Origin: an uncultured Verrucomicrobiota bacterium | Lineage (GTDB): Bacteria > Verrucomicrobiota > Kiritimatiellia > CAIKKV01 > CAITUY01 | Length of the DNA stretch: 60,674 bases | Direction of reading: 5' to 3' | NCBI GenBank assembly: GCA_964535015.1 | Contig: CAZHRU010000005.1 | Coordinates: 1-60,674 of the forward strand | Shown here: piece after piece, positions 2,782-32,882 of the stretch | Position numbering within the stretch: the stretch's first letter is position 1 | Layout: every line of letters starts with the position of its first letter | Translations under genes and position numbers: made by a program | The notes under the pieces: model-generated | The model's input: the letters and a program-made list of their open reading frames with translations, nothing else | Databases searched by the model: none | Told to the model about the DNA's origin: nothing

Positions 2782-3225
2782 GTGAAAAAGACAGATCATA
2801 AACCCACCGTCCTCGTGGTGGATGACGACCCGGAACAACTCGTATCCACGCGACTGGTCCTCTCACCCCTGTACAGCGTCATCACAGCGTCCACCGACAC
2901 CGAGGCCCTCCGCATCGCCGGCACGGCCCACCCGGACCTTATTCTCATGGACGTGATCCTGCAGAGCGGCCAGAACGGTTTCTCGATCTTCCACGAACTG
3001 AGCAATGATCCCGCCACCGCCGCAATCCCGGTAATCTTCCTCACAGGCGTCAACAAAGTCACCGGGTTGGCCTTTGGATCGGACGCCGTGGGCCGTCACC
3101 TCGGCAAAGCACCCGCCGCGTTTCTGGAAAAACCCCTATCTCCTGTCATGTTGCTCCGCGAAGTGGGCAACGCCCTTGGACACACCAAGACGTCGCCGGC
3201 AGGCCATCATGGGCTTCCCGTGTGA
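2782..3225 (+). CDS. Stand-alone response regulator receiver (CheY-like)
   Basis: VLVVDDD, PDLILMDV, IPVIFLTG and FLEKP motifs; no output domain. GTG at 2782 preferred over the ORF-track start. Confidence 0.85.
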   Translation: MKKTDHKPTVLVVDDDPEQLVSTRLVLSPLYSVITASTDTEALRIAGTAHPDLILMDVILQSGQNGFSIFHELSNDPATAAIPVIFLTGVNKVTGLAFGSDAVGRHLGKAPAAFLEKPLSPVMLLREVGNALGHTKTSPAGHHGLPV

Positions 3226-4691
3226 CACGTGTCGCACCGTTCCGTCTTCCACTCGTCTCCGATATCCTCCGGATGCTTGAACTCCAAACCGGACGAAGTG
3301 AAATCCGGAAGATCCTTGCCGGGCCCCTGCGCCAAAATGGTATGGCACGTCTTGCAGTCCTTCGATATCCGCTTCCCGCTATCGCTGACGTGCCGGTCAT
3401 CATGACACCGGAAGCAACCCGGGGTGATCTTATGGCCGACATGGTTGGGATACTCCGTCCAGCGCACCTTCATCTCGGGGAAGAAGTTCCCCCGGTAGAT
3501 GGACTGCACCTCCCGGATCGCCGGCTCAATCCGCGCATCACCCGGGTACTTCGCCCGCAATTCCTTGTCGATGGCCGCCAACGCCTCCGCTTCCGTGGTG
3601 TAAACGGCCGACAGCAACTTCGCAGCCGTCGCCTTGATGGACGGCAGGGAACTGTCAATCCTTCCCTCCGACATGGCGATGTCGAGCATTTCGTTGGGAG
3701 CACGGTAGCGATGCGTAGGACGGTTATGACAGTCAATGCAGTCCATCCGCCGCACCGGTAACGCCGCCGCCTGCGCGTCGGATATCTTCGTCTTATCATC
3801 CTCGGTCCGGTACACCGTCACCTTGCCGCTCTGATCCGTCACCCGAACCCAGGGAATGACCAGGCGCTTCCGGTCGGTCGCGATGTATTCGACCGTGTTG
3901 ACGCCTTCCATGTGCCAGTGAATTCCCCGGATGGGCCCGTGGGCCGGGTCCCCGCCGCCGATGTTGAGCAGCATCTTGATCGTCCATGGCGTGTTCTTCG
4001 CGTCATTCCCGTAGTAGGTCCACGTCCGTAAAACCGCGCCGAAAAACTTCGCCGGCCAGTGGCAGGCCAGACAGGTCTCCTTGGCCGGTCTCAGGTTTTC
4101 CACCGGCGTCTCGATCGGCAGGTGGTACTTGTGGAACAGAACCGAATACACCTGGTACAACCCCGAGATCTTGGCCTTGACGAACCACTTGGCCCCCGCC
4201 CCGATATGACACTCCACACAGGAGGTGTTCGCATGGGGCGACAGGTGAAAGGCCGTGTATTCGGGCTTCATCACCTGGTGACACACCATGCCGCAAAACT
4301 GCACCGACTCCGTATAGTGATAGGTGCGGTAGGTTGCCACCGCGGAAATAACCACGAAGACGACCCCGGCCACGCCAAAGGCCGCCATGCGGGAGAGCGT
4401 TCGCCGGTCGCCAAGATCAATCACCGGCAGGCGCGGCACGTAGCCCTGTCGTTGCGTTCGGCGCCAGGTCCAGAACATACCCACCACCACCAGGCACGCG
4501 GAACCGGCCAGGAACGCCGGCACCAGCAGATAGATCAACAGCCCGAAGTACGGCGAAAGATCATCGCGCGTGGCGTCAATAACCATCAAAACCGATCCGG
4601 TAGCCAGCGCGCAGCCCCCCAGAAATAGGCCCGCCAAACTGATGGTGTTTTTCAGAAGTCTGCTGAACTTGTATTGTTCTTCCACACTCAA
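3207..4691 (-). CDS. imcH: NapC/NirT-family 7-heme inner-membrane cytochrome c, ImcH-like
   Basis: Three N-terminal TM segments; FCGMVCH plus six CXXCH (CVECH, CLACH, CIDCH, CFRCH, CKTCH, CDTCH). Start placed after AAGGAGG near 4691/4685. Confidence 0.8.
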   Translation of the reverse strand: MSVEEQYKFSRLLKNTISLAGLFLGGCALATGSVLMVIDATRDDLSPYFGLLIYLLVPAFLAGSACLVVVGMFWTWRRTQRQGYVPRLPVIDLGDRRTLSRMAAFGVAGVVFVVISAVATYRTYHYTESVQFCGMVCHQVMKPEYTAFHLSPHANTSCVECHIGAGAKWFVKAKISGLYQVYSVLFHKYHLPIETPVENLRPAKETCLACHWPAKFFGAVLRTWTYYGNDAKNTPWTIKMLLNIGGGDPAHGPIRGIHWHMEGVNTVEYIATDRKRLVIPWVRVTDQSGKVTVYRTEDDKTKISDAQAAALPVRRMDCIDCHNRPTHRYRAPNEMLDIAMSEGRIDSSLPSIKATAAKLLSAVYTTEAEALAAIDKELRAKYPGDARIEPAIREVQSIYRGNFFPEMKVRWTEYPNHVGHKITPGCFRCHDDRHVSDSGKRISKDCKTCHTILAQGPGKDLPDFTSSGLEFKHPEDIGDEWKTERCDTCHTGSP

Positions 4692-4934
4692 TCGCCCCTC
4701 CTTCGTTCGCACACCGCACTCCGACAAGTCCAGTTGCTTCTGCCTTCTCATGGCTACACTAAGGGATTTGCTCCCTGAATGCCAACTGAATGTGCGGAGA
4801 AAACGCATCCAGTCGCCGCGCATAAATACACCTGTTTTCTGTAGATTTATCCTGTTCCGGAACGATCGGCTCCATGCTATTAATGATGCCCAACTCGGCC
4901 TGTAGTTGGGGCCTCTTTGATCGTCAACGCTTGA

Positions 4935-7082
4935 ATGGAGAATAAAACCCGGATGAATGGAACACTCACAACCGTCCAACGCCGCCTCTGGATGGCGCTG
5001 GCGTCAATTCTTCTCCTCTCTGGCATCCAGGCGTTCGGATCCTCCATTTCCAACAGCGACTGCCTGGTCTGCCATGACGACCCCGCTCTCGTCCGGATCG
5101 TCGCCGGCAAGACCAACTCGCTGCAGGTCACCACAAACAGCCTGAAGAAATCCGTGCATGCCGGTCTTACCTGCACCGAATGCCATGCGGATATCAAGGA
5201 CCTGCCCCATCCGGACAAACTGGCCGCCCCCAAGTGCGGCAACTGCCATGACGATGTCGCCAAGGAATACGCCTCCAGTATCCACGGGGTCAGCCGCAAC
5301 ATGGGGGCCTCCGGCGCCGCCACCTGCTCCGATTGCCATGGCTCCCACAACATCGTACCCGTCAAACGCGGCGACTCGCCAGTCTTCAAACTCAACCTGC
5401 CGGCAACCTGCGCCCTCTGCCACAGCAATCCGAATCTCACCTCCGAATACCGGATGAAATTCCCCGAAGCCGCCGCCCAGTACATGGAAAGCATCCACGG
5501 CCGGGCCTTGCTCAAACTGGGCCTCATCATCGCCCCGTCCTGCAACGATTGTCACGGCGTCCACAGCATCCGCCGCAGTGTCGATCGCGACTCCCCGATC
5601 AATCATGCCCACATCGCCGACACCTGCGGCAAATGCCATGTCGGCGTGGAAAAGACCTACATGAAGAGCGTGCATGGGCAACTCCTCGCCAAGGGAGACG
5701 CCCGGGGCCCCGTCTGCACCGACTGCCACACCGCCCACCAGATCAACACCCAGGAAGGCGGACACCTCAAGGCCGCCAGTGACGCGCGTTGCGGCAAGTG
5801 CCATCAGGACCGCCTCGAAAACTACATGGAGACCTACCACGGCAAGGCCATCGCCCTGAGCACCTCCCATGAGGCGCCCAAGGTGGCCGCCTGCTACGAC
5901 TGCCACGGGCACCATGATGTCCTCCCTCCTTCGAACCCCCTGTCGCGCCTGTCCACCAACAACATCGTGCAAACCTGCCGGCAATGCCACGAGGGAGCCT
6001 CGGCCAAGTTCACCGAATACCTCCCCCACGCCGACCCCACCGACCGCAAGCACTACCCCCTGCTCCATTTCGTTTTTCTATCCATGACCGGCCTGCTGGT
6101 GGGCACCTTCGCCTTCTTCGGGCTCCACACCGCCCTCTGGCTGCTCCGATCCGGCTACCTCTACCTCCACGATTCGAAAACCTTCCGGGAAGCCAAGATC
6201 AGCACCCAGGTGGACGACCAGTGGTTCGTACGGTTCTCACCGTTCGAACGCATGCTGCACATCATGGTCGTCACCAGTTTTCTCCTGCTGGTCATCACCG
6301 GCATGCCGCTGAAGTTCCATTACACCGCGTGGGCCAAGACAATCTTCAACGTCATGGGAGGTGCCCCCGTGGCCCGCTCCCTGCATCACTTCGCCGCCAT
6401 CATCACCTTCCTCTACTTCGGCCTGCATCTCACGGATCGCGCGCGTGCTTGCTGGAACGGACGCCACAACGTGCTGGATCCCGAAACCGGACGTTTCCAA
6501 TTCAAGCGGCTCGTCACCGTCCTCACCGGCCCCGACTCCATGATTCCCAACATGAACGACTGGCGGCAATTTATCGCCCACCAGAAGTGGTTCTTCGGCA
6601 AGGGGCCCCGCCCGCAGTTCGAACGCTGGACCTACTGGGAGAAGTTCGATTACCTCGCCGTATTCTGGGGCGTCGCCATGATCGGCGCCTCCGGCCTGAT
6701 CATGTGGTTCCCCATCTTCTTCACCCGCTTCCTGCCGGGCTGGGTGATCAATATCGCCATGATCGTTCACTCCGACGAGGCCCTGCTGGCCGCCGGATTC
6801 ATCTTCACGTTCCACTTCTTCAATACGCATTTCCGGATCGAAAAGTTCCCCATGGATACCGTCATCTTCTCCGGACGCATCTCCAAGGCGGAAATGCTGC
6901 ACGAGCGCAAGCAGTGGTACGACCGGCTCCTGGCGACCGGCAAACTCGAGGAGCATCGCGTGCGCGACGAGTGGTTGCGCTGGAAGGACATTGCCCGCAC
7001 CTTCGGCTACATGTTCTTCGGCATCGGCCTTATTTTGCTCGTGTTGATCGCCGTGGCCATGACCACGCGTCTCCTGCATTAA
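4935..7082 (+). CDS. cbcL: CbcL-like fusion: 11-heme periplasmic cytochrome c plus FdnI/HydC-type cytochrome b
   Basis: Signal peptide and 11 CXXCH, followed by TM helices with RMLH, SLHH, WEKFDYLAVFWG and IVHSDEALLA. Confidence 0.85.
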   Translation: MENKTRMNGTLTTVQRRLWMALASILLLSGIQAFGSSISNSDCLVCHDDPALVRIVAGKTNSLQVTTNSLKKSVHAGLTCTECHADIKDLPHPDKLAAPKCGNCHDDVAKEYASSIHGVSRNMGASGAATCSDCHGSHNIVPVKRGDSPVFKLNLPATCALCHSNPNLTSEYRMKFPEAAAQYMESIHGRALLKLGLIIAPSCNDCHGVHSIRRSVDRDSPINHAHIADTCGKCHVGVEKTYMKSVHGQLLAKGDARGPVCTDCHTAHQINTQEGGHLKAASDARCGKCHQDRLENYMETYHGKAIALSTSHEAPKVAACYDCHGHHDVLPPSNPLSRLSTNNIVQTCRQCHEGASAKFTEYLPHADPTDRKHYPLLHFVFLSMTGLLVGTFAFFGLHTALWLLRSGYLYLHDSKTFREAKISTQVDDQWFVRFSPFERMLHIMVVTSFLLLVITGMPLKFHYTAWAKTIFNVMGGAPVARSLHHFAAIITFLYFGLHLTDRARACWNGRHNVLDPETGRFQFKRLVTVLTGPDSMIPNMNDWRQFIAHQKWFFGKGPRPQFERWTYWEKFDYLAVFWGVAMIGASGLIMWFPIFFTRFLPGWVINIAMIVHSDEALLAAGFIFTFHFFNTHFRIEKFPMDTVIFSGRISKAEMLHERKQWYDRLLATGKLEEHRVRDEWLRWKDIARTFGYMFFGIGLILLVLIAVAMTTRLLH

Positions 7083-7100
7083 CCATGACGAGGTGTTCCC

Positions 7101-9041
7101 ATGAACTTGCTTAGACATTACGCGCTCCTGATCGGCCTGTTCGCCAGCCTGCTGCTGACGCAGCGGGCCAAGGCGCTCGACAACAGCGACTGCTTCACCT
7201 GTCACGAGGATAAAACGTTGGTGAAAACCAACGCGGCCGGCCAGGCAGTCGCCCTGTTCGTGGACGCCAAGGGATTTGCAAAATCCATCCACGCCAAGCA
7301 CCTCTGCGTCAGTTGTCATTCGGACATCACCGAGGTGCCGCATCCGGACCGCTTCGTCGCCAAACCGGTATCCTGCTCCCAGTGCCACCGTGTCGAAACC
7401 GAGATCTACCGGAACAGCGATCACGGCAAGGCCATCCACAAGGGCGTGCCGGAGGCCGCCTCCTGCAAGGATTGCCATGGCAGCAACCACTACCTGATGA
7501 ATTCCCGCAGCCCCGAATCACCCGTCTTCCGCACCAATCTCCCCAAGACCTGCGGGCGCTGCCACGACAACGCCGCGGAGATGGAGAAGTTCAACCTCCG
7601 CCAGCACGGCCCCGGCCTTTCTTACGAGAAGAGCGTGCACGGCATTGCCTTGCTGGAAAAAGGGGAGATGAACGCCGCCAACTGCGCGGATTGCCATGGG
7701 TCACATGACCTCCACCGGTCCACCAACCCCACCTCCAAACTCTACTGGCAGACTGTCCCCACGACCTGCGGAAAATGCCATGACAATGTCAATCAAACCT
7801 ATTCCCGCAGCATTCACGGACAGGCCGCCAAGGCCGGTGTGCGCGATGCCCCCGTCTGCACCGACTGTCATGGCGAACATTCCATTGACTCCGTGAAACT
7901 TGCCGGTTCCAGGGTCTCCCCGGCCAACATCCCGGGAACCTGTAACCAGTGCCACTCGGCGCAACGCATTGTGACCCAGTACCGGTTGCCGCCGAATGTG
8001 TCGGACACCTATGCGAAAAGCTTCCACGGACTGGAGTCAAAGGGTGGTAACCCTACCGCGGCCAATTGCGCATCCTGCCACGGCGTACACGACATTTTGC
8101 CGTCCAGTGACACCCGCTCCTCGATTAATCCCCAGAACCTGCCCCAGACCTGCGGCAAATGTCATCCGGGCATCGGCACCCGCATGGGGGCCGACTTCTT
8201 CAAGGTCCATGCCCCGCCCGGCGCCGCGGCTGGAAAGCCATGGGTGGTGAATTTTGTTTCCTGGGCCTACATCACGTTGATTGTCCTGGTCATTGGAGGG
8301 ATGGCCGGTTTCGTCCTTCTCGACTACCTCCGCAAAACCCGCGAGCACCTGCGCGCCGTAAGGGCTTCCAATGGAGAACTTCGCCTCACTCCCGGAATGC
8401 GCGTCCAGCATCACGTGCTGGTGGTGCTGTTCATCCTGCTGGTGTATACCGGATTCGTTCACAAGTGGCCGGATGCCGTATGGAGCTGGCCGTTTCATGT
8501 GTTGCCCAACGGCAGTTATGTGCGCGGCATGATCCATCGCATCTGCGGCTGGGCGTTCACCGTCTTTTTCCTGGTTCACCTGGTCGCACTCGTCGGCACC
8601 CGCCAGGGCCGGCGCCACCTGAAGGATCTATGGCCCGTTTGGAATGACGCCACCGACGCCCTTGCCGTCTTTGCCCACAACATCGGACTGCGCAAGACAC
8701 CGCCCCCGCCCCGCCGCTGGAACTATGCCGAAAAGGCGGAGTACTGGGCACTGGTCTGGGGATCAGTCGTGATGGCGGTCACCGGCATCATGTTGATCTA
8801 CTCGGAAACCGTCCTGCGCCTGCTGCCGAAAGTCTGGCACGACGTGGCACAGGTCATCCATTTTTATGAGGCAATTCTTGCCGCACTGGCAATCCTGGTC
8901 TGGCACTTTTACTGGGTGGTCTTCGACCCCAGCGAATACCCGATGAACCCGTCATGGTTGCTCGGAAAGAAAGCGCCCCATCCCCCGCATACACCTGAAA
9001 CACCGCCCCAGACCGAGTCCAAGGGCCCGCATCAACCCTAG
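7101..9041 (+). CDS. cbcL: Second CbcL-like 11-heme cytochrome c / cytochrome b fusion
   Basis: 11 CXXCH; cytochrome b motifs RVQH, MIHR, YAEKAEYWALVWG, VIHFYEA...WHFY. Confidence 0.85.
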   Translation: MNLLRHYALLIGLFASLLLTQRAKALDNSDCFTCHEDKTLVKTNAAGQAVALFVDAKGFAKSIHAKHLCVSCHSDITEVPHPDRFVAKPVSCSQCHRVETEIYRNSDHGKAIHKGVPEAASCKDCHGSNHYLMNSRSPESPVFRTNLPKTCGRCHDNAAEMEKFNLRQHGPGLSYEKSVHGIALLEKGEMNAANCADCHGSHDLHRSTNPTSKLYWQTVPTTCGKCHDNVNQTYSRSIHGQAAKAGVRDAPVCTDCHGEHSIDSVKLAGSRVSPANIPGTCNQCHSAQRIVTQYRLPPNVSDTYAKSFHGLESKGGNPTAANCASCHGVHDILPSSDTRSSINPQNLPQTCGKCHPGIGTRMGADFFKVHAPPGAAAGKPWVVNFVSWAYITLIVLVIGGMAGFVLLDYLRKTREHLRAVRASNGELRLTPGMRVQHHVLVVLFILLVYTGFVHKWPDAVWSWPFHVLPNGSYVRGMIHRICGWAFTVFFLVHLVALVGTRQGRRHLKDLWPVWNDATDALAVFAHNIGLRKTPPPPRRWNYAEKAEYWALVWGSVVMAVTGIMLIYSETVLRLLPKVWHDVAQVIHFYEAILAALAILVWHFYWVVFDPSEYPMNPSWLLGKKAPHPPHTPETPPQTESKGPHQP

Positions 9042-9088
9042 TTGGTTGAATTCGCTCTTAGCCGGAACGATTCCATGTTCACAGCAAG

Positions 9089-9295: not shown

Positions 9296-10084
9296 TCACT
9301 TCACCGTCAACGTGGCGTCTTCCACAATCAACTCATACTTGTAACCAGCGCCAAAATCCTTCTTGATCCCTACCACTCCGCTCGCCGTCACCACATCACC
9401 CACGTTCGCCAAGTCCTTCGACGTCACCACGAGATCATTGTCGCCCTTGTCCGTTCCGGACCCATCGCGCAGGTGATACCAGTTCCGCCCCAGAATGCTC
9501 GCGTTGGCTTTCACCACCTTGCCCCGAACCGCCACCTTCTTTCCTGACAAGTCCGCCTTCCCCGCCCACACATCCGCCACCGTCTTGCCACCCTCCGCCC
9601 TGTCAATCGTCCCCACCACAACAGACCCCGCCGCCGCGCCACCCGGCATTCCCATCCCGCCGCCAACCGCAGGATGCCCCTCCGGCATCCCTTTGACCGC
9701 CGCCACCGCGCCTGTCTTGCAGGAGGAATCCCCGTTCCCCTTCATAATCGCATCCACGAAGCGGATCTCGTCAAACGTCTTGTTCAACGTCTTGCTGTGG
9801 AATTCCTTGTTCAGGATCCCCGCCCCGACACAGACCGAATCCCCAACCTTGATTTCCGCCATCGGTCCGGCCACCCAGATCTTCTCCGTGCCCGTATCAA
9901 TCCTCGCATAGGTGTACCGGCTGGCATTCATCGTCTCCAGTACCGTCCCCTTGTAAGCCACTTCCCTGCCCGCCGCACCGGCCGCCACCGTATCCGGCGC
10001 CGCCACACACTTGCCGCCCATCGATGTTGACGCCGCCACCAGCGTAATCGCGACCACACCCGCCACCATCAGTTTGCCGCTCAT
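9296..10084 (-). CDS. NrfJ-related periplasmic protein with OB-fold domains
   Basis: Start at 10084 after GGGAG; signal peptide; GTVLETMNASRYTY...WVA...F.SKTL.KTFD.I.F; MPEGHP linker; C-terminal V.VRGKVVK....ILGRNWYHLRDGS...KDFGAGYKY. Confidence 0.7.
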   Translation of the reverse strand: MSGKLMVAGVVAITLVAASTSMGGKCVAAPDTVAAGAAGREVAYKGTVLETMNASRYTYARIDTGTEKIWVAGPMAEIKVGDSVCVGAGILNKEFHSKTLNKTFDEIRFVDAIMKGNGDSSCKTGAVAAVKGMPEGHPAVGGGMGMPGGAAAGSVVVGTIDRAEGGKTVADVWAGKADLSGKKVAVRGKVVKANASILGRNWYHLRDGSGTDKGDNDLVVTSKDLANVGDVVTASGVVGIKKDFGAGYKYELIVEDATLTVK

Positions 10085-10134: not shown

Positions 10135-10953
10135 TCAGCTCCGCCCGTAACTGTGAAGCCCCGACAGCAGGAAGTTCACCCCGTAGTAGGTGAACAGTAC
10201 CGAGAGAAATCCAATGATCGAGATCCATGCCGCCAGCCGCCCGCGCCAGCCGCGCATAAACCGGCAATGCAGAAAGACCGCATAGACAAACCATGTGATC
10301 AACGACCAGGTCTCCTTGGGGTCCCAGGACCAGTAGGTGCCCCAGGCCGAGTTCGCCCACACGGCACCGGTCAGAATACCCAGCGTGAGAAAAAGAAATC
10401 CAAAGGAAATGGTCTGCGTCAGGATCGTCTCCAGAGTCTCCTTGGTCTCCTCCTGCGCTGAACTTCCCTTCCGGGCCGATACCAGAAAACCAATCGAGAC
10501 CAGCGCCGAAATCGCGAACCCGCCATAACCGAGAAAACACGTCATTACATGGAAGGACAACCAGTTGCTCTGCAAGGCCGGCATCAGCGGCTTGATCGCC
10601 GATTCAAACGTGCTGGCATGCGCCAGGGCCAACCCCGCAAACGCCGCCGAGGCCGCCGTCAGCCAGGGAATCTTCGCCCAGATCCGTAACACCAGGTAAC
10701 CCACCGCCACCGTCCAGGCGAAAAGCACCAGCGATTCAAACATATTGCTGAAAGGGGCCCGACCCGCCTGCTCCCACCTTACCCCCAGATACACCATCTG
10801 GATCAGGGCGCCGGCGCCAATGAGCACATCGGCGGCAATGGTAAAAAAACGCCACCGCGCCATCACGTATACCACCGCACAAACAAGCGCCCCGAAATAG
10901 GCCCCCAGACTTGCGTTAAACAATGCGGTCATGTCACTAAAGAATGCGCTCAT
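10135..10953 (-). CDS. ccsA: Cytochrome c biogenesis system II CcsA/ResC
   Basis: WGTYWSWDPKETW (WWD) motif, conserved His in FHV and LHSY, multiple TM helices. Confidence 0.95.
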   Translation of the reverse strand: MSAFFSDMTALFNASLGAYFGALVCAVVYVMARWRFFTIAADVLIGAGALIQMVYLGVRWEQAGRAPFSNMFESLVLFAWTVAVGYLVLRIWAKIPWLTAASAAFAGLALAHASTFESAIKPLMPALQSNWLSFHVMTCFLGYGGFAISALVSIGFLVSARKGSSAQEETKETLETILTQTISFGFLFLTLGILTGAVWANSAWGTYWSWDPKETWSLITWFVYAVFLHCRFMRGWRGRLAAWISIIGFLSVLFTYYGVNFLLSGLHSYGRS

Positions 10954-12358: not shown

Positions 12359-12374
12359 TGTGATATGTGTCCCA
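12359..12374. promoter_or_regulatory. CRP-like box TGTGA-TATGTG-TCCCA
   Basis: 9/10 match to the CRP consensus with AA/TT flanks, in the AT-rich divergent promoter between resB and the c554 gene. Confidence 0.55.
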
Positions 12375-12453
12375 TTGTCGCCATTGTTCCAATAATGAGA
12401 TAGTGGATGGTACTGAAGGAACAACGAAGCCTCACTTTGAAGGAGACCGTTAC

Positions 12454-15538: not shown

Positions 15539-15595
15539 CGCGAAAAGGCCATTAATCCTCCGTCACGCACTGTGATGGAGGGACGTCAGGCACAT

Positions 15596-15625
15596 GGGGC
15601 TCCCGCAAAGGAGCCCCGTTCTTTT
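15596..15625 (+). terminator. Rho-independent terminator
   Basis: GGGGCTCC-cgcaaa-GGAGCCCC followed by GTTCTTTT. Confidence 0.75.
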
Positions 15626-15643
15626 GACAGACAGGTCTATGGA

Positions 15644-16910: not shown

Positions 16911-17052
16911 CACTCATCCATCTGCGAATATATAACCATAGTTTCGGAATCACTCTTGGGATTCCGGAAAGCACGGGGAGAGATCCTCGCGCTGTTGACG
17001 GAAGGACGCTTTTTTGAGTAAGAACTCGTTTCAAAGGAAAGGTCAGTCGAAA

Positions 17053-17709: not shown

Positions 17710-17762
17710 GTAATCGTGCCCAGCGTAGGTTGCGCTGAGGTCCGCGACGATCGTTATCCATG

Positions 17763-24861: not shown

Positions 24862-24874
24862 GTCCGAATACCCT

Positions 24875-27568
24875 ATGAGGTCCATGACCATGGATGCGAC
24901 ACCAACACCTGCAAACCATCAGAACGGGTTGCTCATCCGCGCGGTTTCGGGTCTGTACCTCGTGAGCCTGCTCTGGTGCATCCCTGCGGCATCCCTGGCA
25001 AGTGACCCGCCCCATACCAATGCGAACGCCTGCGCCACCTGTCACCTGACCCATAATGCGTTTGGCCCGCTCCTCCTGACCAACGGGGTTGCCAATCTGT
25101 GCTTGTCGTGCCACTCCGCGGGCGGCGAGGCATCCGCCAAGCCCTTTGCCTCCGCCAACCAGGCATGGCCCTGGCCGGGTCTACCCGCCGCTACAAACGC
25201 CTCCGGCACCTCCCACCGCTGGGATGCCGGCGCGGCAGGCCATGTCGTCTTCCAGGGCGGCGCCGTGACCTCCTCCACCGGCATCATCTTTCCCGGCGGC
25301 GTCTACACCGGCGCCTACCCGAAGACCTACACCGTGACGATCACCAATGCGGGCAACGCCGGGGTCGCCCGTTTCAACTGGACCGCCACCCTCCCCGGCG
25401 GCGGTGCCGGCACGAACCTGCTCGCCGCCACCAACACCCCCCTCGACCAGGGCATTCTCCTCACCTTCGCCAACGGAACCGGCGTATCCTTCCAAGTCAA
25501 TGACCGCTGGATCATCCCCGTCCGTCCCGATCTGCGCGCACCCACCAATACGTTCATGCTGACCCGCCTCGTCAATGGATCCGTCGTTTGCTCCACCTGC
25601 CACGACCAGCATAGCCAACTCAAGACGCCCTTCGATCCGGCCGCGCCGACGAACACCACCTCTGCCGGCCGTCATTTCATGCGCGTGGCTAACGATCAGA
25701 ACCAGATGTGCCTGGACTGCCACGCCACCCGCAATGTCACCAACGCGATTCAGGGATCTCACCCAGTGGGCATCAGCACCCTTTCCAACACCCTGTACAA
25801 ACTCCCCGCCTCCCTGCCTCTCTCGAAAACCATCAACCATGTCGGTTGCCTGACCTGCCACACTCCCCACTACGCCCCCGCCAACAACGGCATGCTCCTC
25901 CGCATGACCAATACCCTCGCCCTCTGCGTGGATTGCCACCAACTGGCCAACACCAATACCCCCGGTTGCCACTTCATCACGACCAATGCCGCCACCCTCT
26001 GGCCGGGCGGCCAATACGGGTCCCTCCTGACCAATCGAACCGATGCCGCCTTGCAGGGCTCCTGCCTGAACTGCCACAGGGTACACGGCTGGCCCGATGC
26101 CGCCAATCCCACCAATGACTACCCGCGTCTCCTCGCCGACCGCGAGGAAAACCTCTGCTTTACCTGCCACGACGGCAACGGCCCCGCCGCCAAGGATGTC
26201 TACGTCGCCTTCACCAACGTCTATCATCATACGGTCCTCGATGCCGAACAGCGCCCGGGCCGCACCGTGGAGTGCCTGGACTGCCATAACGTCCATCAGT
26301 CCATTTCCAACGGCCATGTCTACACCAATTCGGCAACCTCCACCCGCAACCTGGTATCCAACCCGCTCAAGGGAGTCCCCGGTGTCGCCATCACCTACTC
26401 ATCCTTGACCAATTTCTCCGGAGTAACCACAAACCTGTACACCGCCATTCCCCAGTCCACCAATGAGTACCAGATCTGCATGAAGTGCCATTCGGGATAT
26501 GGTTACCCCGTCAATACCGCCGGAACCGCCTCTTTCACCACCAACACCTCCGCGGTAAGCGGCTCCGGCACCCAGTGGTCCAGCAACCTGGTGGGACAGA
26601 CACTCTTTCGCGCCAATGACCCGACACTTTACGTCATCACCGACGTAACCAGTGCAACCAGTCTATCCATCACCCCTCCCTATTCGGGGGCGACTGCCGC
26701 CGGCCAGTCCTTCACCATCATGGGGTTGCCGCCGGGCCTCACCCCCGTCTACACCAACGGAACGGCCGCCTTCACCAACAACAGCACCACCGTCAAGGGA
26801 ACCAGTACCACGTGGGGATCCGGAATGATCGGCCTGTGGATCGCACCCACCTCCACGCCTGCCGTCCTCTACAGGATCACGGCAGTCCTCAACACAACAA
26901 CCCTCACCATCGTCCCGGCCTATGCCGGCGCAAACAGTACCGGTCAGCGCTACCACATAACCGGAGGCACCGACCTCGCCCAGGAATTCAGCCCGATGAA
27001 CATGTCGGGGCACCCCATCTACACGGGCCTGAGCAACTACGTCAACACCCTCGCCCCGCGCGGACTCCTCGCCACCGCCCTCCGCCCGCCATGGAACGCC
27101 AACGTCGGCAACCAAACCATGATGTGCTCGGATTGCCACGACGACACGACCACCAATTACGTCCCCGGCGCTGCTCAGGGTCCCCACGGTTCCGCCTACC
27201 AATACATCCTGCGGGGCCCCAACGGCAACAACTGGCCGAATGTCACCTCCTTCGCCTCCAGTTGGTGCGCCAATTGCCACATCGACAACGTCGGCAAAGA
27301 AATGCACACCCGCGGTGAACACACTGCCGCGAACTGCTACGGATGCCACATCGTCATACCCCACGGCGGCAAGGTCTCCCGCCTCATTGGCGACCGCGAC
27401 ACCATGCCGGCCCGCTACGCCTGGAACAACACACTCACCAACATGCAGGTTTCCGCCTTCAAGAAGACCACCGCCAACAGTTACGCCGAGGGATCCAGCG
27501 GGAACTGCGCGGCCGCCTGCAGTAGCACCGACAAGCATCCCTCAATTTCAGGAGCCGAAAACTGGTGA
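24875..27568 (+). CDS. 13-heme secreted cytochrome c with inserted beta-rich domains
   Basis: 13 CXXCH, a terminal CAAACSSTDKH, two repeated ~68-aa inserts and one N-terminal beta insert; T/N-rich. Confidence 0.9.
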   Translation: MRSMTMDATPTPANHQNGLLIRAVSGLYLVSLLWCIPAASLASDPPHTNANACATCHLTHNAFGPLLLTNGVANLCLSCHSAGGEASAKPFASANQAWPWPGLPAATNASGTSHRWDAGAAGHVVFQGGAVTSSTGIIFPGGVYTGAYPKTYTVTITNAGNAGVARFNWTATLPGGGAGTNLLAATNTPLDQGILLTFANGTGVSFQVNDRWIIPVRPDLRAPTNTFMLTRLVNGSVVCSTCHDQHSQLKTPFDPAAPTNTTSAGRHFMRVANDQNQMCLDCHATRNVTNAIQGSHPVGISTLSNTLYKLPASLPLSKTINHVGCLTCHTPHYAPANNGMLLRMTNTLALCVDCHQLANTNTPGCHFITTNAATLWPGGQYGSLLTNRTDAALQGSCLNCHRVHGWPDAANPTNDYPRLLADREENLCFTCHDGNGPAAKDVYVAFTNVYHHTVLDAEQRPGRTVECLDCHNVHQSISNGHVYTNSATSTRNLVSNPLKGVPGVAITYSSLTNFSGVTTNLYTAIPQSTNEYQICMKCHSGYGYPVNTAGTASFTTNTSAVSGSGTQWSSNLVGQTLFRANDPTLYVITDVTSATSLSITPPYSGATAAGQSFTIMGLPPGLTPVYTNGTAAFTNNSTTVKGTSTTWGSGMIGLWIAPTSTPAVLYRITAVLNTTTLTIVPAYAGANSTGQRYHITGGTDLAQEFSPMNMSGHPIYTGLSNYVNTLAPRGLLATALRPPWNANVGNQTMMCSDCHDDTTTNYVPGAAQGPHGSAYQYILRGPNGNNWPNVTSFASSWCANCHIDNVGKEMHTRGEHTAANCYGCHIVIPHGGKVSRLIGDRDTMPARYAWNNTLTNMQVSAFKKTTANSYAEGSSGNCAAACSSTDKHPSISGAENW

Positions 27569-28977
27569 TTCCCCCCCTCCAGCGTGTTCTCCGTTCGCCG
27601 GGGATTGTGATGACTGAAATTGCGGCCTTGGCTCTCGCCTGTTCGCTGGGCGTACTGTGGCCAACCCTTGCCGTCTTCCAATCCCCCTGGTTCCTCGTCA
27701 TAACCGCCATTGCAGCCCTCTCCCTGCTGATCGCCGTCCGTGATCAGGGGCGCCGCCTGCTCTGCGGCGACGTCACGGCCAGGCGGGTCGGCTCCATGAT
27801 GCTTCATCTCGGACTCATCGCCATCATCGCCGCCGGTGCCTGGCGCGCCCTTTTCTCCTCTGAGGCCGTCGTGGATCTCATCGAAGGCGAAACCCTACCC
27901 CCCGCCCCAACCGCCTGGACCCATCAACCTCCCGGCCTGCTGGCCACCCCCTTTCACCTGACCCGGCCCATCACCCTGGAGGCCCTCCATGGAAGCCGCT
28001 ATCCCGACGGCCGCCTTCGCGATCTCTCGGCCACCCTCTCGGCCGGAACCGTGGCCGTCAATCACGACCTCATCCTCCCGGGCGGACGTATCTTCCTTGA
28101 CCAGACGTTCGGTCCCGCCGCCCTCCTTGAGTGGCATCCGCCGCAGAAGTCGGCCGTATTGCTCGATCCTGAAACCCGCACGGCAACCGCCACGGGGCCG
28201 GACGGACTAACGGCATACCTGCGCGCCCCCCCCATCCGCCCCGATCATGTCGAAGTTCGCGTCATGCGGAATAACGGCCTCCTCTTCTCCGGTGAACTCC
28301 GCCCCGGACAAACCCTGTCCCTCCACGGTGGCGCAACGCTGACCTTGCGCGGCATCCCCCTCTGGACTCGCCTCCGCGGCAGTCACGACCACTCGCACCG
28401 CCTCGCCTACCCCGGCTTTGCCCTCATCCTGATCGGTTGTATCCTGCTCTTCGCACGCACTGCCCCGCCTCAAGGACTGCGCGTCGTCGCGTCCGCACCC
28501 CTCTTCCTGTCGGCCATCCTTCTCGCCGGGTGTAACCGCACCTCAACCGAGGAAGCCCGCCAACTCGTCCTCCGCTACAACACCCTCGTTGCCGAGGCCT
28601 ATCGCCGCGGCGACCCTCACTTGATTGAACCCGTCGTCAGCCTCAACGAAGGCAAGAAACTCACCGGCCTCATCGGCGTTCGCTCGGACCTGGGCCTCAC
28701 CCTCGACTCCGAACTGCTGTCCCTCACGCTCATCGCTGCTGAGCAGCGCGCCCGCAAACTGCGGGTTCAAACAAAAGAGCAGTGGCGCTATCGTGACCGC
28801 AAAATCGGCACCGGTGAACAGGTCGGCGAGGAGTCCTCAGATTCCTACGAGATGCTGTACCTGTTCACTCAGACCAACCGGACATGGATAGTGGATGAAA
28901 TCCAATTCACCTCCCCACCCAGGATCGGCCGCAAACAGATGACCTGGCAGGAATCGCGTAATCCGGAAAAACCATGA
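27565..28977 (+). CDS. Reduced ResB-like protein fused to a C-terminal lipoprotein-like alpha/beta domain
   Basis: F.SPWF, MMLHLGL, V.VNHDL, D..H.LAYPGF, then a hydrophobic stretch with LLAGC and a further ~150-aa domain in the same frame. Confidence 0.7.
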   Translation: MIPPLQRVLRSPGIVMTEIAALALACSLGVLWPTLAVFQSPWFLVITAIAALSLLIAVRDQGRRLLCGDVTARRVGSMMLHLGLIAIIAAGAWRALFSSEAVVDLIEGETLPPAPTAWTHQPPGLLATPFHLTRPITLEALHGSRYPDGRLRDLSATLSAGTVAVNHDLILPGGRIFLDQTFGPAALLEWHPPQKSAVLLDPETRTATATGPDGLTAYLRAPPIRPDHVEVRVMRNNGLLFSGELRPGQTLSLHGGATLTLRGIPLWTRLRGSHDHSHRLAYPGFALILIGCILLFARTAPPQGLRVVASAPLFLSAILLAGCNRTSTEEARQLVLRYNTLVAEAYRRGDPHLIEPVVSLNEGKKLTGLIGVRSDLGLTLDSELLSLTLIAAEQRARKLRVQTKEQWRYRDRKIGTGEQVGEESSDSYEMLYLFTQTNRTWIVDEIQFTSPPRIGRKQMTWQESRNPEKP

Positions 28978-29801
28978 ACGTTTTCACCCTTGAAACCATC
29001 CTGCACTGGACCGGCGTCGGCCTCTACATCCTGGCGGTCATCACCTTCGCCAACGCCATCCTCTTCGCGCATCCCGACCGCACCCGCCGCGCCTGCTGGA
29101 TCACCGCCATCGGCCTCCTCCCCCACTCCGCCGCCCTCGTCGTCCGCTACCTCAACGTCGGCCATGGCCCCTACATGCTGAAGTACGAGGTCCTCTCCTC
29201 CAACGCCTGGATCGCCATTGCCATGCTCCTCGTCTTCATCTGGCGCCGCCCCGCCTGGTCCGCCGCCGCCCTCGTCGTCCTGCCGGCCGCCATCCTGATG
29301 GTTGGCCTGGGCCTCTTCACAAATCCCGAGGCGCGGAACCTGCCACCCACCCTGCGATCCATGTGGCTGGTCTTCCACGTCCTCTTCAATAAACTCGCCG
29401 TCGGCGCCTTCCTGCTATCCGTCGCCACAGCAACCTGCCTGCTTCGCAAACTGGGCGGCGCTTCCGCCCGCTGGCTCGACCGCCTCCCCGCACCCGATGC
29501 CCTTGAGGCCTACACCGTCCGCTTCATCGGATTCGGGTTCATCTTCTGGACCACCACCATCGGCGCCGGCGCCATCTGGGCCCACCAGTCCTGGGGCCGC
29601 TACTGGGCCTGGGACCCCATCGAAACCTGGTCGCTCGTCACCTGGCTGGCCTACGCCACCCTCCTGCATATCAAGGTGTTCTTCCGCCTCTCGGCGCGCA
29701 CCACCGCCTGGAGCACCGTCGCCTGCTTCATCCTCTCGGTCCTCACCATCCTGATCTTCCCGTTTGTGTTCCCTTCCATGCACTCAGCCTATTTCCAATA
29801 A
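28974..29801 (+). CDS. ccsA: Second CcsA/ResC paralog
   Basis: WGRYWAWDPIETW, FHV and MHSAY; multiple TM helices. Confidence 0.9.
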   Translation: MNVFTLETILHWTGVGLYILAVITFANAILFAHPDRTRRACWITAIGLLPHSAALVVRYLNVGHGPYMLKYEVLSSNAWIAIAMLLVFIWRRPAWSAAALVVLPAAILMVGLGLFTNPEARNLPPTLRSMWLVFHVLFNKLAVGAFLLSVATATCLLRKLGGASARWLDRLPAPDALEAYTVRFIGFGFIFWTTTIGAGAIWAHQSWGRYWAWDPIETWSLVTWLAYATLLHIKVFFRLSARTTAWSTVACFILSVLTILIFPFVFPSMHSAYFQ

Positions 29802-31252
29802 TGAGCCGTAAACACCCGGAAATCATGCTGGTCACCCCGCCCTACCATTCCGGGGTCGTGGAGTCCGCCGGTTCCTGGCTGCCCCTCGGCCTCCTTTACG
29901 TGGCTGGCGCCTTGCAACGCGCCGGTTACGGCGTCTCCCTCTATGACGCCATGACCCGTTTCCACACCCTGGAACAGGTCCGGCAAACCATCCGGCGGGA
30001 ACAACCGGACGCCGTCTTTGTCTCCTGCATCACCGCCACCGTCATGGACGGCATGGACGTCTGCCGTGTGGCCAAGGAGGAGTTCCCCGACACCCTCACC
30101 GTCCTCGGCAACACCCATCCCACGTTCATGTATGAGGAAATTCTCCGGGATCACCCCGAGGTGGATGTCATCGTCCGCGGCGAAGGCGAGATTACCTCGG
30201 TGGAACTAATGGACGCCTGGAAAACCGGAGCCAACCCCGGCAACGTCCGCGGCATCGCCTTTCGCGACGGAAACTCCATCGTGGCGACACCCTGCCGCCC
30301 GTTTATCCCCAACCTGGATTCCACCGCTCCGGCCTGGGACCTGGTCCCCTGGAAGGAATATACGTACCGCCCCAAACCCGGATCAATCCTCGCCGTCGTT
30401 TCCTCATCCCGAGGCTGTAAACAACATTGCTCCTTCTGCTCCCAGCGCCTGTTCTGGGAGGAATCCTGGCGCGCCGTCTCTCCCGAATCGTTCGTCAATG
30501 AACTCGAGATGCTCCGACGCCGTCACGGGGTCAACGTCGCCATGATCGCCGACGAAATCCCCACCCTGGACGCCGCACGCTGGGAACGGATTCTCGACCT
30601 CCTGATCGAACGCGACCTCGGCATCGCCCTCCTGCTGGAGACACGGGTTGACGACATTCTACGCGACGCCCACCTCCTGCCCCGCTACCGCCAGGCTGGC
30701 ATCGAACACATCTATGTCGGCGTCGAATCCGTCGACCAGGCCACCCTGGATCTCTTCAAGAAGGACGTCAAGGTCGAGCAGAACAAACGCGCCATCGAAC
30801 TCCTGAACCAGCATGACATCATCTCGGAGACCTCCTTCGTCATGGGTCTACCCGGCGACACGCCCGCGAGTATGGACCGCACCATCGAACTGGCCAAGTT
30901 CTACGACCCGGATATGGCGTTCTTCCTCGCCATCACCCCCTGGCCCTACGCCGATATCTATAATGACGTCAAGGACCACATTGCAGTTTGGGACTACCGG
31001 AAGTATAATTTGGTCGAACCGATAATCAAACCCGACACCATGACGTTGGCCGAGGTTCATGGACATCTCTTCCGGGGCTTCCGTGATTTTTACATGAACA
31101 AGATGAAGCAACTTCCAACCATGCCGGAGTGGAAGCAGGCGTTTATGAAATCACTGATGAAACTCTTGATGGACCATTCCTACCTGAAGGACCAAATGGG
31201 CGGCATGAACCCCCCTTCTATTCAACCTCTTCCCCCTACCCCAGTGAGGTGA
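29801..31252 (+). CDS. Cobalamin-binding radical SAM protein, BchE-like
   Basis: N-terminal B12 domain (PLGLLYVAG); CKQHCSFC cluster motif; ETRVDDILRD and TPWPY segments resemble BchE as I recall it; coupled to ccsA (TAATG). Confidence 0.8.
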   Translation: MSRKHPEIMLVTPPYHSGVVESAGSWLPLGLLYVAGALQRAGYGVSLYDAMTRFHTLEQVRQTIRREQPDAVFVSCITATVMDGMDVCRVAKEEFPDTLTVLGNTHPTFMYEEILRDHPEVDVIVRGEGEITSVELMDAWKTGANPGNVRGIAFRDGNSIVATPCRPFIPNLDSTAPAWDLVPWKEYTYRPKPGSILAVVSSSRGCKQHCSFCSQRLFWEESWRAVSPESFVNELEMLRRRHGVNVAMIADEIPTLDAARWERILDLLIERDLGIALLLETRVDDILRDAHLLPRYRQAGIEHIYVGVESVDQATLDLFKKDVKVEQNKRAIELLNQHDIISETSFVMGLPGDTPASMDRTIELAKFYDPDMAFFLAITPWPYADIYNDVKDHIAVWDYRKYNLVEPIIKPDTMTLAEVHGHLFRGFRDFYMNKMKQLPTMPEWKQAFMKSLMKLLMDHSYLKDQMGGMNPPSIQPLPPTPVR

Positions 31253-31256
31253 CGCC

Positions 31257-32882
31257 ATGAAGCACTACCTGCTCCTCCTGCTCTCCACCTTCCTCCTCAG
31301 CATGACAACCCATGCCGCCGCCCCAACCGTCACACCGCTGACCAGTTACTCGGCATCCCTGCAGTCCCCCACCCGAGTCGCCACCGACAGTTCCGGCAAC
31401 GTCTATGTCGTGGATTCGCCCTCCGGCTGCATCGTCGTGTTCGACGCCTTTGGCCGCGTCACCGCCACACACTCCGGTTTCAACCGCCCACTGGGAATCG
31501 CCGTGGACGCCTCGGGCCATATCTACCTTGGCGAGGAACAATCCGGCAGCATCACCGTGCTGGATCCACAGTGGACCCCCCTCTACAAACTCGGCAGTGG
31601 TAATGGCGAGTTCAGTATGCCCAACTTCATCGCCACCGACGCCCCCAGCAATACCGTCTACGTCTCGGACAGCAAGGCCAACACCATCAAAGTGTATTCC
31701 GGAGCCACCCTGATCAACCAGTTCGGAACCGGCGGCACCAACAACGGCGCGTTTGATTTCCCCGCCGGCATCGCCGTCAGCACCGGCGGCGAGGTCTTCG
31801 TCATGGACCAGAACAACGACCGCGTCCAGATCTTTGATCGCAACGGCGTCTATCTCCGCCAGATGAACTTCATGGCCGGAACAAACCGCGTCCCCACAGG
31901 GCGCCGCCAGGGACTGTTGCTCGACAACGCGGGACGCCTTTACGTGACGGACTCGTTCAACGCCATCGTCACCGTCTACGACGCCACCACGGGAACACCC
32001 CTCGGCACCCTCGGAAACTTCGGTCTCGGCGCTGGCAATCTGAACCTCCCGGCGGCCGTCTGCATGGATCCCTTCAACCGGCTCCTGGTAACCTCCGCCA
32101 ACAACGGACGCCTGGAACTCTACGGCATCGACAACTACCTTCACCTCACCGCAACGCCGGCAACCCTCGACCTCGCTTCCGGAACCAATCTCGTCTTCAC
32201 AGCCTCCCTGGGCGGAACAGGCCCCTTTTCCTTCGAATGGCGGAGAAACGCCACCAACCTGCTCGACGGCATCACCATCAACGGATCCACGAACTCCACC
32301 TTGACCATCAGCGGGGCGACCCCCGCCGATAGCGGCCTCTATTCGGTGATCATCACGGGCCCGACCACCATCACCAGTAGCGTGGCGCAAGTCGCGATCA
32401 GCGACCCGCCAACCCTCATCGGCGGCCCTTACAGCCCCACCGTACTCCGGGGCGACACGGTCGACCTTTCGGTTACCGCCACCGGACCCAACCTGACCTA
32501 CCAGTGGCAACACAACAACCTGAACATTGCGGGCGCCACCAATGACACACTGACCTTGACCGGGGTGCAACCCTCCGACGCCGGAACCTATGGGGTACTC
32601 ATCAAAAACGCGGTGGGTGCTCTCAGCCGCACTGCCACCGTCACGGTGCTAAGCCCCCCGCTCGTCATGGAGTTCCTTGGCATCGCGATTCAACCGGACC
32701 AGTCACCCATCCTCACCATCAACTCCGACCCCGGCGCCAACTATTCCCTGGACGCGTCCGATGACCTGTCAACCTGGTCGCCCCTGTTCCCATTCCTGAA
32801 CACAGCGGGAATTCTGAACCTGACCGATCCCGACACAACCAACACCGTCCACCGCTTCTACCGCCTCCGCTGGCTCCCCTGA
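31257..32882 (+). CDS. Secreted NHL beta-propeller with two Ig domains and a Verrucomicrobia-type C-terminal domain
   Basis: NHL repeats; Ig motifs FEWRRN...LTISG...DSGLYSV and YQWQHN...LTLT..QPSDAGTY; tail G.NYSLDASDDL.TW...D......RFYRL. Confidence 0.8.
   Translation: MKHYLLLLLSTFLLSMTTHAAAPTVTPLTSYSASLQSPTRVATDSSGNVYVVDSPSGCIVVFDAFGRVTATHSGFNRPLGIAVDASGHIYLGEEQSGSITVLDPQWTPLYKLGSGNGEFSMPNFIATDAPSNTVYVSDSKANTIKVYSGATLINQFGTGGTNNGAFDFPAGIAVSTGGEVFVMDQNNDRVQIFDRNGVYLRQMNFMAGTNRVPTGRRQGLLLDNAGRLYVTDSFNAIVTVYDATTGTPLGTLGNFGLGAGNLNLPAAVCMDPFNRLLVTSANNGRLELYGIDNYLHLTATPATLDLASGTNLVFTASLGGTGPFSFEWRRNATNLLDGITINGSTNSTLTISGATPADSGLYSVIITGPTTITSSVAQVAISDPPTLIGGPYSPTVLRGDTVDLSVTATGPNLTYQWQHNNLNIAGATNDTLTLTGVQPSDAGTYGVLIKNAVGALSRTATVTVLSPPLVMEFLGIAIQPDQSPILTINSDPGANYSLDASDDLSTWSPLFPFLNTAGILNLTDPDTTNTVHRFYRLRWLP

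Follow-up and report, generated by a model that had tools for sequence, protein, structure and literature searches.

The stretch of DNA analysed here, called the window in what follows, comprises 60,674 nucleotides of contig CAZHRU010000005.1 (assembly GCA_964535015.1) and comes from an uncultured Verrucomicrobiota bacterium of the class Kiritimatiellia, known from a metagenome-assembled genome (MAG) of 3.02 Mb in 205 contigs that is 87% complete. Between positions 3207 and 32882 the window carries an island of multi-heme cytochrome genes that is the subject of this study. Annotation by Pfam, NCBIfam and PDB sequence searches and by simple topology scans gives the following features, in which ORF stands for open reading frame, TM for transmembrane and Ig for immunoglobulin.

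3207-4745, minus strand: inner-membrane heptaheme quinol oxidase of ImcH architecture, whose likely start lies inside the long ORF 3207-4979 (6 CXXCH)
4935-7082, plus strand: CbcL/MtoC/MtrH-type fusion 1, an 11-heme periplasmic domain joined to a membrane cytochrome b domain (11 CXXCH)
7101-9041, plus strand: CbcL-type 11-heme/cytochrome b fusion 2 (11 CXXCH; Ni_hydr_CYTB 2.6e-11; five TM segments)
9296-10030, minus strand: secreted 244-aa protein made of two similar halves, function not assigned
10135-10953 and 10950-12185, minus strand: CcsA1 and ResB1, system II cytochrome c maturation (Cytochrom_C_asm 1e-50; ResB 3e-43)
12367-13047, plus strand: c554-like periplasmic tetraheme, candidate periplasmic carrier (4 CXXCH; Cytochrome_C554 1e-15; signal peptide)
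13082-15538, plus strand: octa/nonaheme cytochrome with two C-terminal invasin-type Ig-like domains, candidate surface cytochrome (8 CXXCH)
15572-16891, plus strand: ResB2, an extra ResB paralog (ResB 7e-42)
17053-17709, plus strand: OmcE-homologous tetraheme, putative filament subunit (ORF 17014-17709; 218 aa; signal peptide; 4 CXXCH, at 46, 99, 182 and 212)
17817-19010, plus strand: NHL beta-propeller lipoprotein 1 (NHL 3.6e-20; lipobox LAGC)
18973-20067, plus strand: MtrA/DmsE-like 11-heme lipoprotein (11 CXXCH; six doubled-CXXCH domains, 8e-68; lipobox IAGC)
20064-22049, plus strand: outer-membrane beta-barrel, large (661 aa, about 28-30 strands) and carrying a small inserted domain
22049-23071, plus strand: NHL beta-propeller 2 (NHL 1.7e-32; six-bladed propeller 3.3e-25)
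23068-24861, plus strand: 12-heme cytochrome, an N-terminal OmcE-like module with an 8-heme extension (11 CXXCH)
24875-27568, plus strand: 13-heme cytochrome containing a fibre-like insert; its C-terminal motif, C-X3-C-X5-H, is atypical (13 CXXCH)
27565-28977 and 28974-29801, plus strand: reduced ResB3 and CcsA3 (ResB 3e-9; Cytochrom_C_asm 6e-31)
29801-31252, plus strand: BchE-like, B12-binding radical S-adenosylmethionine (SAM) enzyme (TIGR02026 BchE, 432.8 bits against a cutoff of 481)
31257-32882, plus strand: secreted NHL propeller with two Ig domains (NHL 1.5e-27; Ig_3 1.3e-17)

Nine ORFs within 3207-27568 hold 79 CXXCH motifs, to which are added three extended heme motifs, one each in the ImcH-like protein (CGMVCH), the octaheme (CYLSGCH) and the 12-heme protein (CSLTCH). 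This tally, obtained from the ORF listing and a motif count, is identical to that of an earlier reading of the window made from the letters alone (hereafter the sequence-only reading), and its broader claim, that some 30 kb code for an extracellular electron transfer (EET) chain with none of its layers missing, is borne out by homology or by architecture. The whole genome contains 13 ORFs with at least three CXXCH, and since nine of these lie in the island, their clustering is far beyond chance; the island holds almost all the multi-heme cytochromes of its host genome. From 17817 to 31252 the genes overlap or abut, stops overlapping starts, so that this segment is probably a single operon; the tetraheme gene is positioned ahead of it, with a hairpin between the two. 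Three system II heme-lyase sets are interspersed with the cytochromes: ResB1/CcsA1, ResB2 alone and ResB3/CcsA3. The interpretation we propose, to which we give a probability of about 0.68, is that the island would encode an outward EET pathway leading from menaquinol to extracellular acceptors in a Kiritimatiellia bacterium.

The core of this proposal is the module at 17.0-24.9 kb. The tetraheme is homologous over its full length to two solved filament subunits, the OmcE proteins of G. sulfurreducens (PDB 7TFS, E 2.4e-19, residues 36-231 against 21-232) and of D. soudanensis (PDB 9YUQ, E 6.1e-19). Its four CXXCH and its four distal histidines (H33, H53, H137 and H189) are invariant in sets of 19 and of 92 homologs, and these histidines align with histidines of 7TFS and 9YUQ. 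In OmcE-type cytochromes, four further conserved histidines complete the bis-histidine ligation, and the genomic context includes a large barrel and a beta-propeller lipoprotein (PMC13712944); in the 17053-17709 product we find all four traits, namely the size (about 200-230 aa, secreted) and CXXCH number, the distal histidines, the full-length similarity and the context. As we read the alignment, the N-terminal histidine is the one that may be donated to the next subunit. At 17762-17790, 3' of the tetraheme stop codon, stands a perfect 13-bp GAAA hairpin, and a separate gene followed by so strong a hairpin fits a subunit made in excess.

The companions of the tetraheme recur elsewhere. Among the best 80 loci of at least 569 confirmed in species-representative genomes, the neighbourhood includes NHL propeller 1 in 73, NHL propeller 2 in 73, the MtrA-like lipoprotein in 58, the 12-heme protein in 55 and a barrel of about 650-680 aa in 51; the module itself is shared by at least 50 of these 80 loci, which come from many phyla. 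The 11-heme lipoprotein matches PDB 6R2Q_A (E 8.4e-17), which we take to be the MtrA chain of the Mtr complex, the database label reading cystathionine beta-synthase. Against TIGR03508, the MtrA/DmsE decaheme family, it scores 128.1 bits (3.9e-37), below the cutoff of 192.2, and because of this score, of its 11 hemes and of its lipobox we call it MtrA-like and do not count it as a family member. The AlphaFold2 (AF2) model of the barrel has a mean predicted local distance difference test score (pLDDT) of 86.8 and contains 29 long strands.

The 12-heme protein adds a second OmcE-like element to the module. Its residues 22-225 match 7TFS with an E value of 2.2e-30, a stronger match than that of the free tetraheme, and a complete OmcE module opens the 12-heme protein in all 60 loci examined, with the four CXXCH kept in 60 and the four distal histidines in 59-60 of them. 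Because the full module is retained with its ligands, the 12-heme protein is a natural candidate for the anchor cytochrome encoded within the cluster that Petersen et al. sought and did not find (PMC13712944). An OmcE module carried with eight more hemes by a second protein bears on how such filaments would be anchored and wired to the cell.

Upstream of this module lie the genes of the predicted inner-membrane step. The ImcH-like protein, of about 512 aa, has TM helices at 38-56, 63-91 and 120-138, the CGMVCH (CX3CH) motif at 151, right after the third helix, and six CXXCH; its NrfH/NapC-NirT-like region matches PDB 2J7A_C (E 6.5e-5) and, under the cutoff, TIGR03153 (1e-11). It is 41-53% identical to proteins of ImcH architecture at other loci. 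Fusion 1 combines matches to Ni_hydr_CYTB (3.5e-6) and to the FdnI-like TIGR01583 (8.8e-12) with four C-terminal TM segments, and is 67% identical to its copy in a relative of the class (genome G027). Both fusions show the layout of the CbcL/MtoC/MtrH family, a c-type domain with 3-23 CXXCH followed by a C-terminal cytochrome b of the HydC/FdnI type, and it is this multi-heme c domain fused to a cytochrome b that constitutes their likeness to Geobacter CbcL (GSU0274). Geobacter CbcL carries 9 hemes, whereas the CbcL-type proteins here carry 11. The hallmark of ImcH homologs given by Zhong and Shi consists of three N-terminal TM helices, a CX3CH beside the membrane domain, 5-9 CXXCH and about 500 aa (PMC6295460). 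The 3207-4745 product presents each of these traits and resembles Geobacter ImcH (GSU3259) through them, the comparison being made with the published description and not with the GSU3259 sequence; for ImcH and CbcL alike, the likeness to Geobacter is one of architecture as described and not of aligned sequences. The arrangement itself differs: here the CbcL-type gene is present in two tandem copies and the ImcH-like gene lies near an outer-membrane module, whereas in the published survey imcH was never adjacent to mtrAB or mtoAB (PMC6295460).

The c554-like tetraheme, the candidate for the step between the two membranes, is shared with class relatives at 50-64% identity and is there co-located with ResB1/CcsA1; the WWD motif of CcsA1 (WGTYWSWDPKE) is intact. 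The secreted 244-aa protein at 9296-10030 has no family or PDB match in Pfam, NCBIfam and PDB, and its homologs adjoin the cluster in six class relatives and at nine loci of other phyla. The octaheme, with its eight CXXCH and its CYLSGCH, matches Invasin_D3 over two stretches (1.2e-22) and Cytochrome_C554 (3.6e-15), and no homolog of it lies near the cluster in the relatives examined. A strong terminator-like hairpin at 15594-15619 stands 3' of the octaheme gene and falls inside the ResB2 ORF as annotated, at its 5' end; translation of ResB2 probably begins at the ATG near 15644.

The distal part of the island, from the 13-heme gene to the NHL-Ig gene, is specific to part of the Kiritimatiellia and is the most original component of the island. 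At a distance below 10 kb from the cluster, this block (13-heme protein, ResB3, CcsA3, radical-SAM enzyme and NHL-Ig protein) is found in none of the 80 loci of other phyla, with the exception of 13-heme and NHL-Ig homologs near the cluster in a few Acidobacteriota. Residues 548-617 of the 13-heme protein match a pyocin side-fibre chain (7e-9). Its last heme motif reads CAAACSSTDKH here, C-X2-3-C-X2-5-H in relatives (loci L088, L091 and L092) and CX3CH in the Acidobacteriota homolog, and the 13-heme protein with a non-canonical last motif is always accompanied by the reduced ResB, by CcsA and by the BchE-like radical-SAM enzyme. The ResB3 and CcsA3 genes overlap their neighbours by 1-4 nt, and the WWD motif of CcsA3 is altered (WGRYWAWDPIE). 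Among the proteins of the island, the radical-SAM enzyme is the best conserved, with 74-93% identity in relatives; 7 of the 13 OmcE-positive genomes of the class encode it, against 1 of the 288 OmcE-negative ones (Fisher p 3e-10). Wolinella possesses dedicated CcsBA isoenzymes for special heme motifs, and for this reason a specialised role of the block in maturation or heme modification is conceivable, though unproven. That it would be a dedicated maturation system by which the 13-heme surface cytochrome receives a heme that is non-canonical or chemically modified is a speculation that we hold to be quite doubtful; if true, cytochrome c biogenesis would gain a new branch, one that couples a radical-SAM enzyme acting on porphyrins with a specialised heme lyase.

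The genes around the island and elsewhere in the genome supply further parts of the picture, the neighbours being the following.

33278-34837: sulfatase
36971-48566, plus strand: siroheme-dependent (Ahb) heme operon with HemX/CcsA-like, HemA, AhbC, AhbD-like, AhbAB fusion, CbiK-type chelatase, HemC-CobA-HemD fusion, HemB and HemL
54251-56731: GH94 enzyme

The sequence-only reading had placed a heme operon after the island, and the operon is indeed there and of the siroheme-dependent type: AhbC (TIGR04546, 670.7 bits), AhbA and AhbB exceed their cutoffs, HemA scores 403 bits with TIGR01035, and with an AhbD-like enzyme of 404 bits, under its cutoff of 500, we count the Ahb pathway (AhbA/B, AhbC and AhbD) as present. 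A degenerate CcsA-like gene of the HemX type stands 5' of HemA. The Ahb operon adjoins the cytochrome cluster in relative G027 too. The same reading had listed a sulfatase, a lyase and a GH94 enzyme beside the island; the first and the last stand, while the lyase label, given to the 894-aa ORF at 51371-54055 (plus strand), is dropped as unconfirmed, this ORF having no match in Pfam, NCBIfam or PDB. Between the heme operon and the GH94 region, 48917-50784 (minus strand) encodes an EcoRV-type restriction endonuclease and a D12-class adenine methyltransferase; the GC content of this patch is 55%, against about 60-64% in its flanks, and it is probably a mobile restriction-modification cassette. 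Elsewhere in the genome we find MqnA/MqnD, a complex-I-type NuoH and Rnf/Nqr, which make a quinol-fed chain plausible; a MenA-type menaquinone prenyltransferase was not found in the genome, the futalosine route being present instead. Two of the four multi-heme ORFs outside the island are NrfA and NrfH (genome contig C6, 2584-4555), NrfA having CXXCH in place of CXXCK at the first site; beyond NrfAH, the genome has no clear respiratory multi-heme cytochrome outside the island.

The island is at home in its host. On the same contig, HemL is 81% identical to a protein of a MAG labelled 'Kiritimatiellia bacterium' and about 70% identical to proteins of MAGs labelled 'Lentisphaerae bacterium', the GC content of the island is 60.1% against 59.6% for the genome, and its tetranucleotide distance falls at the 42nd percentile of 30-kb chunks; because of these HemL relatives and this genome-like composition, mis-binning is unlikely and a host from the Planctomycetes-Verrucomicrobia-Chlamydiae (PVC) group is right. 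The PVC host that the sequence-only reading had deduced from domain style and flanking genes is also in keeping with the synteny of the island, which extends to relatives at the level of genus, family, order and class and covers 12 further class genomes in all. The trait is rare within the class, at about 4% of genomes: the tetraheme occurs in 6 of the 41 close relatives and in 13 of the 301 genomes of the class (11 of 141 genera), and across the phylum in 3 of 401 sampled genomes, this one included. In the positive genomes of the class, ImcH, the c554-ResB-CcsA trio, the 244-aa protein and CbcL are recurrent companions of the module, and the Ahb operon accompanies it once.

The history of the island was followed with the 12-heme protein. 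In a maximum-likelihood tree, all 11 Kiritimatiellia sequences form one clade with 99/99 support, together with one long-branch Bacteroidota row, and this clade nests in a larger group with Pseudomonadota, Thermodesulfobacteriota and Myxococcota rows. The 12-heme protein and ResB3 are 53-59% identical to those of relatives, HemB and HemL about 75% (relative G027), and these identities fit an old resident that was often lost, perhaps with some exchange within the class, and not a recent import. We reject a recent transfer from Desulfobacterota on the grounds of the 12-heme tree, of the genome-like composition and of the synteny in relatives, where the divergence is similar to that of housekeeping genes. 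The 'Geobacter-type' label that the sequence-only reading had attached to the island does not describe its origin: in the protein collection searched, the tetraheme family has over 2570 members, and the six-gene core is found, among the matches listed, in at least 12 phyla, so that the label is one of convenience that reflects study bias. By record title, the loci belong to Bacteroidota, Ignavibacteriaceae/Melioribacteraceae, Calditrichota, Chlorobiota, Acidobacteriota and Gemmatimonadota, and further ones to KSB1, Sumerlaeota, Desulfobacteraceae/Desulfobulbaceae, Proteobacteria and Verrucomicrobia; among the matches listed, the best relatives of the tetraheme in other phyla are 42-53% identical. 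Petersen et al. published omcE homologs with their cluster context for five phyla (PMC13712944), and the omcE-type six-gene module is far more widespread than that.

The model we propose combines these elements in a single path. A menaquinone pool, synthesized by the futalosine route, would be reduced by the complex-I-type enzyme and/or by Rnf/Nqr, and the menaquinol would be oxidized at the inner membrane by the ImcH-type heptaheme protein and the two CbcL-type c/b fusions. The c554-like tetraheme would ferry the electrons over the periplasm to the MtrA-like 11-heme lipoprotein, which would be seated in, or docked on, the barrel of about 28-30 strands, assisted by the two NHL propellers. On the outside, the electrons would reach the 12-heme protein with its OmcE-like N-terminal module, a putative filament built from the OmcE-homologous tetraheme, and two large surface cytochromes, the 13-heme protein and the octaheme with its invasin-type domains; they would end on Fe(III)/Mn(IV) minerals, on humic quinones or on a partner cell. 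The three system II heme-lyase sets and the neighbouring Ahb operon would supply the approximately 82 hemes required. The pathway may serve respiration, or it may act as an electron sink that improves glycan fermentation. We infer where each protein resides, that the tetraheme polymerises, which way the electrons run, what accepts them and that the genes are expressed. The outward direction is suggested by the ImcH-type protein, whose homologs have so far been found in Fe(III) reducers only (PMC6295460), and by the reductant-rich, glycan-fermenting lineage; cultured Kiritimatiellales reduce anthraquinone-2,6-disulfonate (AQDS) and metals by an unexplained route (PMC7356697).

Several observations weigh against this model. 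No cytochrome of the island reaches a curated NCBIfam equivalog cutoff, ImcH, CbcL and OmcE having been sought, and a MAG completeness of 87% makes absences in the rest of the genome uncertain. Peterson et al. judged that EET was not the primary pathway of Kiritimatiellaeota bins bearing porin-cytochrome (PCC) operons (bioRxiv 10.1101/2020.04.01.018762), the CbcL/MtoC family functions in both directions (PMC6295460), and Geobacter OmcE is reported to be dispensable for the reduction of Fe(III) oxide and of anodes (PMC13194489, PMC11077965). The AF2 model of the tetraheme, computed without hemes from a 19-sequence alignment, is poor (pLDDT 47.9), so that the case for filament formation is drawn from sequence. 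As for the barrel, it has no Pfam match and shows neither sequence similarity nor close structural similarity to MtrB-type porins; Foldseek returned generic large barrels only, the top TM-score being 0.42, at 7% identity, with MtrB (6R2Q_B), and for this reason we leave it without family assignment. The barrel could be a secretion pore instead of an electron conduit, and its role may be the export or anchoring of the filament, as proposed for the companion genes of OmcS (Shen et al. 2025, cited in PMC13194489).

Some of these points favour the competing explanation that survives best, in which the locus encodes a surface porin-cytochrome conduit without a nanowire: the tetraheme would be monomeric or form short assemblies, and the barrel and propellers would be either a conduit or an export and assembly machine. 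Polymerisation is not readable from sequence, the heme-free model gives it no structural footing, and the physiological role of OmcE filaments is itself disputed (PMC11077965, PMC13194489). Furthermore, position 66 is a histidine in 89 of 92 free tetrahemes and an arginine or lysine in the solved OmcE proteins and in the N-terminal modules of the 12-heme proteins; this extra invariant histidine (H66) sets the free tetrahemes outside Desulfuromonadia apart as a distinct subfamily. All this is opposed by the invariance of the four CXXCH and of the four distal histidines, the N-terminal candidate for inter-subunit donor among them, by the full-length homology to two solved filaments, and by the separate gene with its strong hairpin. 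We consider a conduit without nanowire unlikely, although it is the most probable of the alternatives.

A reversal of the path, in which the quinone pool would be reduced by electrons entering from outside, whether Fe(II), reduced humics, a cathode or a syntrophic partner were their source, is very unlikely. The CbcL/MtoC/MtrH homologs are indeed found in Fe(II) oxidisers and in Fe(III) reducers alike and Mtr-type conduits are reversible (PMC6295460), and the NrfAH of the genome is a possible internal sink. The presence of the ImcH-type protein speaks for the opposite direction, as does the setting in an anaerobic, glycan-fermenting lineage with a sulfatase and a GH94 enzyme on the contig, where an excess and not a shortage of reductant is expected; moreover, the multi-heme census of the genome gave no terminal acceptor system besides NrfAH, no search having been aimed at terminal oxidases. 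Finally, that the island has nothing to do with EET and instead serves, in the periplasm, the reduction or detoxification of some soluble compound by multi-heme proteins, or that the contig is mis-binned, is hardly credible and appears already largely refuted, for the faint resemblance between the 13-heme protein and octaheme nitrite reductases (E about 0.01) and the MAG origin of the genome are outweighed by the absence of a match between the island and any catalytic multi-heme family, by a barrel, lipoproteins, invasin-type and Ig domains and an OmcE homolog that all point outward, and by the Kiritimatiellia-like housekeeping genes on the contig, the synteny in 12 other class genomes and the genome-like composition.

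The island can be set beside several described systems. With the omcE cluster of Desulfuromonadia (PMC13712944) it shares an OmcE tetraheme, two propeller lipoproteins, two multi-heme cytochromes, a large barrel and adjoining resB/ccsB genes, so that the parts list at 17.0-24.9 kb equals the minimal set of that cluster. It differs from it by the low identity to the solved subunits, the Kiritimatiellia host, the extra invariant histidine of the tetraheme and the lack of a glycosyltransferase block, and it adds the 13-heme protein, the reduced ResB/CcsA, the BchE-like radical-SAM enzyme and the NHL-Ig protein, as well as the co-location with inner-membrane quinol oxidases and a heme operon. The likeness to Shewanella MtrCAB (6R2Q) lies in the association of a large barrel, for which MtrB gives the top TM-score, with a periplasmic MtrA/DmsE-type deca/undecaheme (E 8e-17); the barrel here is no sequence homolog of MtrB, the MtrA-like protein is a lipoprotein with 11 hemes, and the island has no decaheme of the MtrC/OmcA family. 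In G. sulfurreducens the osc operon of OmcS companions, described by Shen et al. 2025 (cited in PMC13194489), also joins subunit genes with a barrel, lipoproteins and paralogous cytochromes, and its accessory proteins are proposed to fold, secrete and shape the filament; the likeness is one of concept, and the cytochrome family, that of the hexaheme OmcS, is a different one.

Within the PVC group, parts of the picture were already known: ImcH and CbcL homologs were reported in Verrucomicrobia and Lentisphaerae in 2018 (PMC6295460), PCC operons were mentioned in Kiritimatiellaeota bins in 2020 (bioRxiv 10.1101/2020.04.01.018762), and clusters of porin and multi-heme cytochrome genes were described in Verrucomicrobia in 2017 (PMC5615132) and 2026 (bioRxiv 10.64898/2026.05.27.727921). 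The clusters of the 2017, 2020 and 2026 reports (EET3/EET4 in the last) belong to uncultured PVC polysaccharide degraders of anoxic, organic-rich habitats; they combine a barrel with periplasmic and extracellular multi-heme cytochromes, OmcE-like models being mentioned for the peat clusters, and are shorter than the island, a comparison by description and not by alignment. The novelty is for these reasons lower than the sequence-only reading had claimed, and the island represents, in this lineage, a gene set that is widespread and has been described before, and not a new kind of system. What these reports do not contain, in their accessible text, is a full chain of ImcH, two CbcL, three maturation sets and an adjacent Ahb operon in Kiritimatiellia, and our literature search found no paper that links Kiritimatiellia to an omcE-type cluster or describes the full co-located chain.

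In conclusion, our observations bear on the place of these bacteria in anoxic habitats. The Kiritimatiellia are abundant anaerobic degraders of sulfated and complex glycans that are usually treated as fermenters. A complete chain from quinol to the cell surface, present in about 4% of the class, provides a testable genetic basis for the export of electrons to iron minerals, humics and partner cells. Could some of these bacteria then dispose of the reductant of glycan degradation outside the cell? If so, electron export would change the predicted flow of carbon and hydrogen in sediments, stratified lakes and peat.

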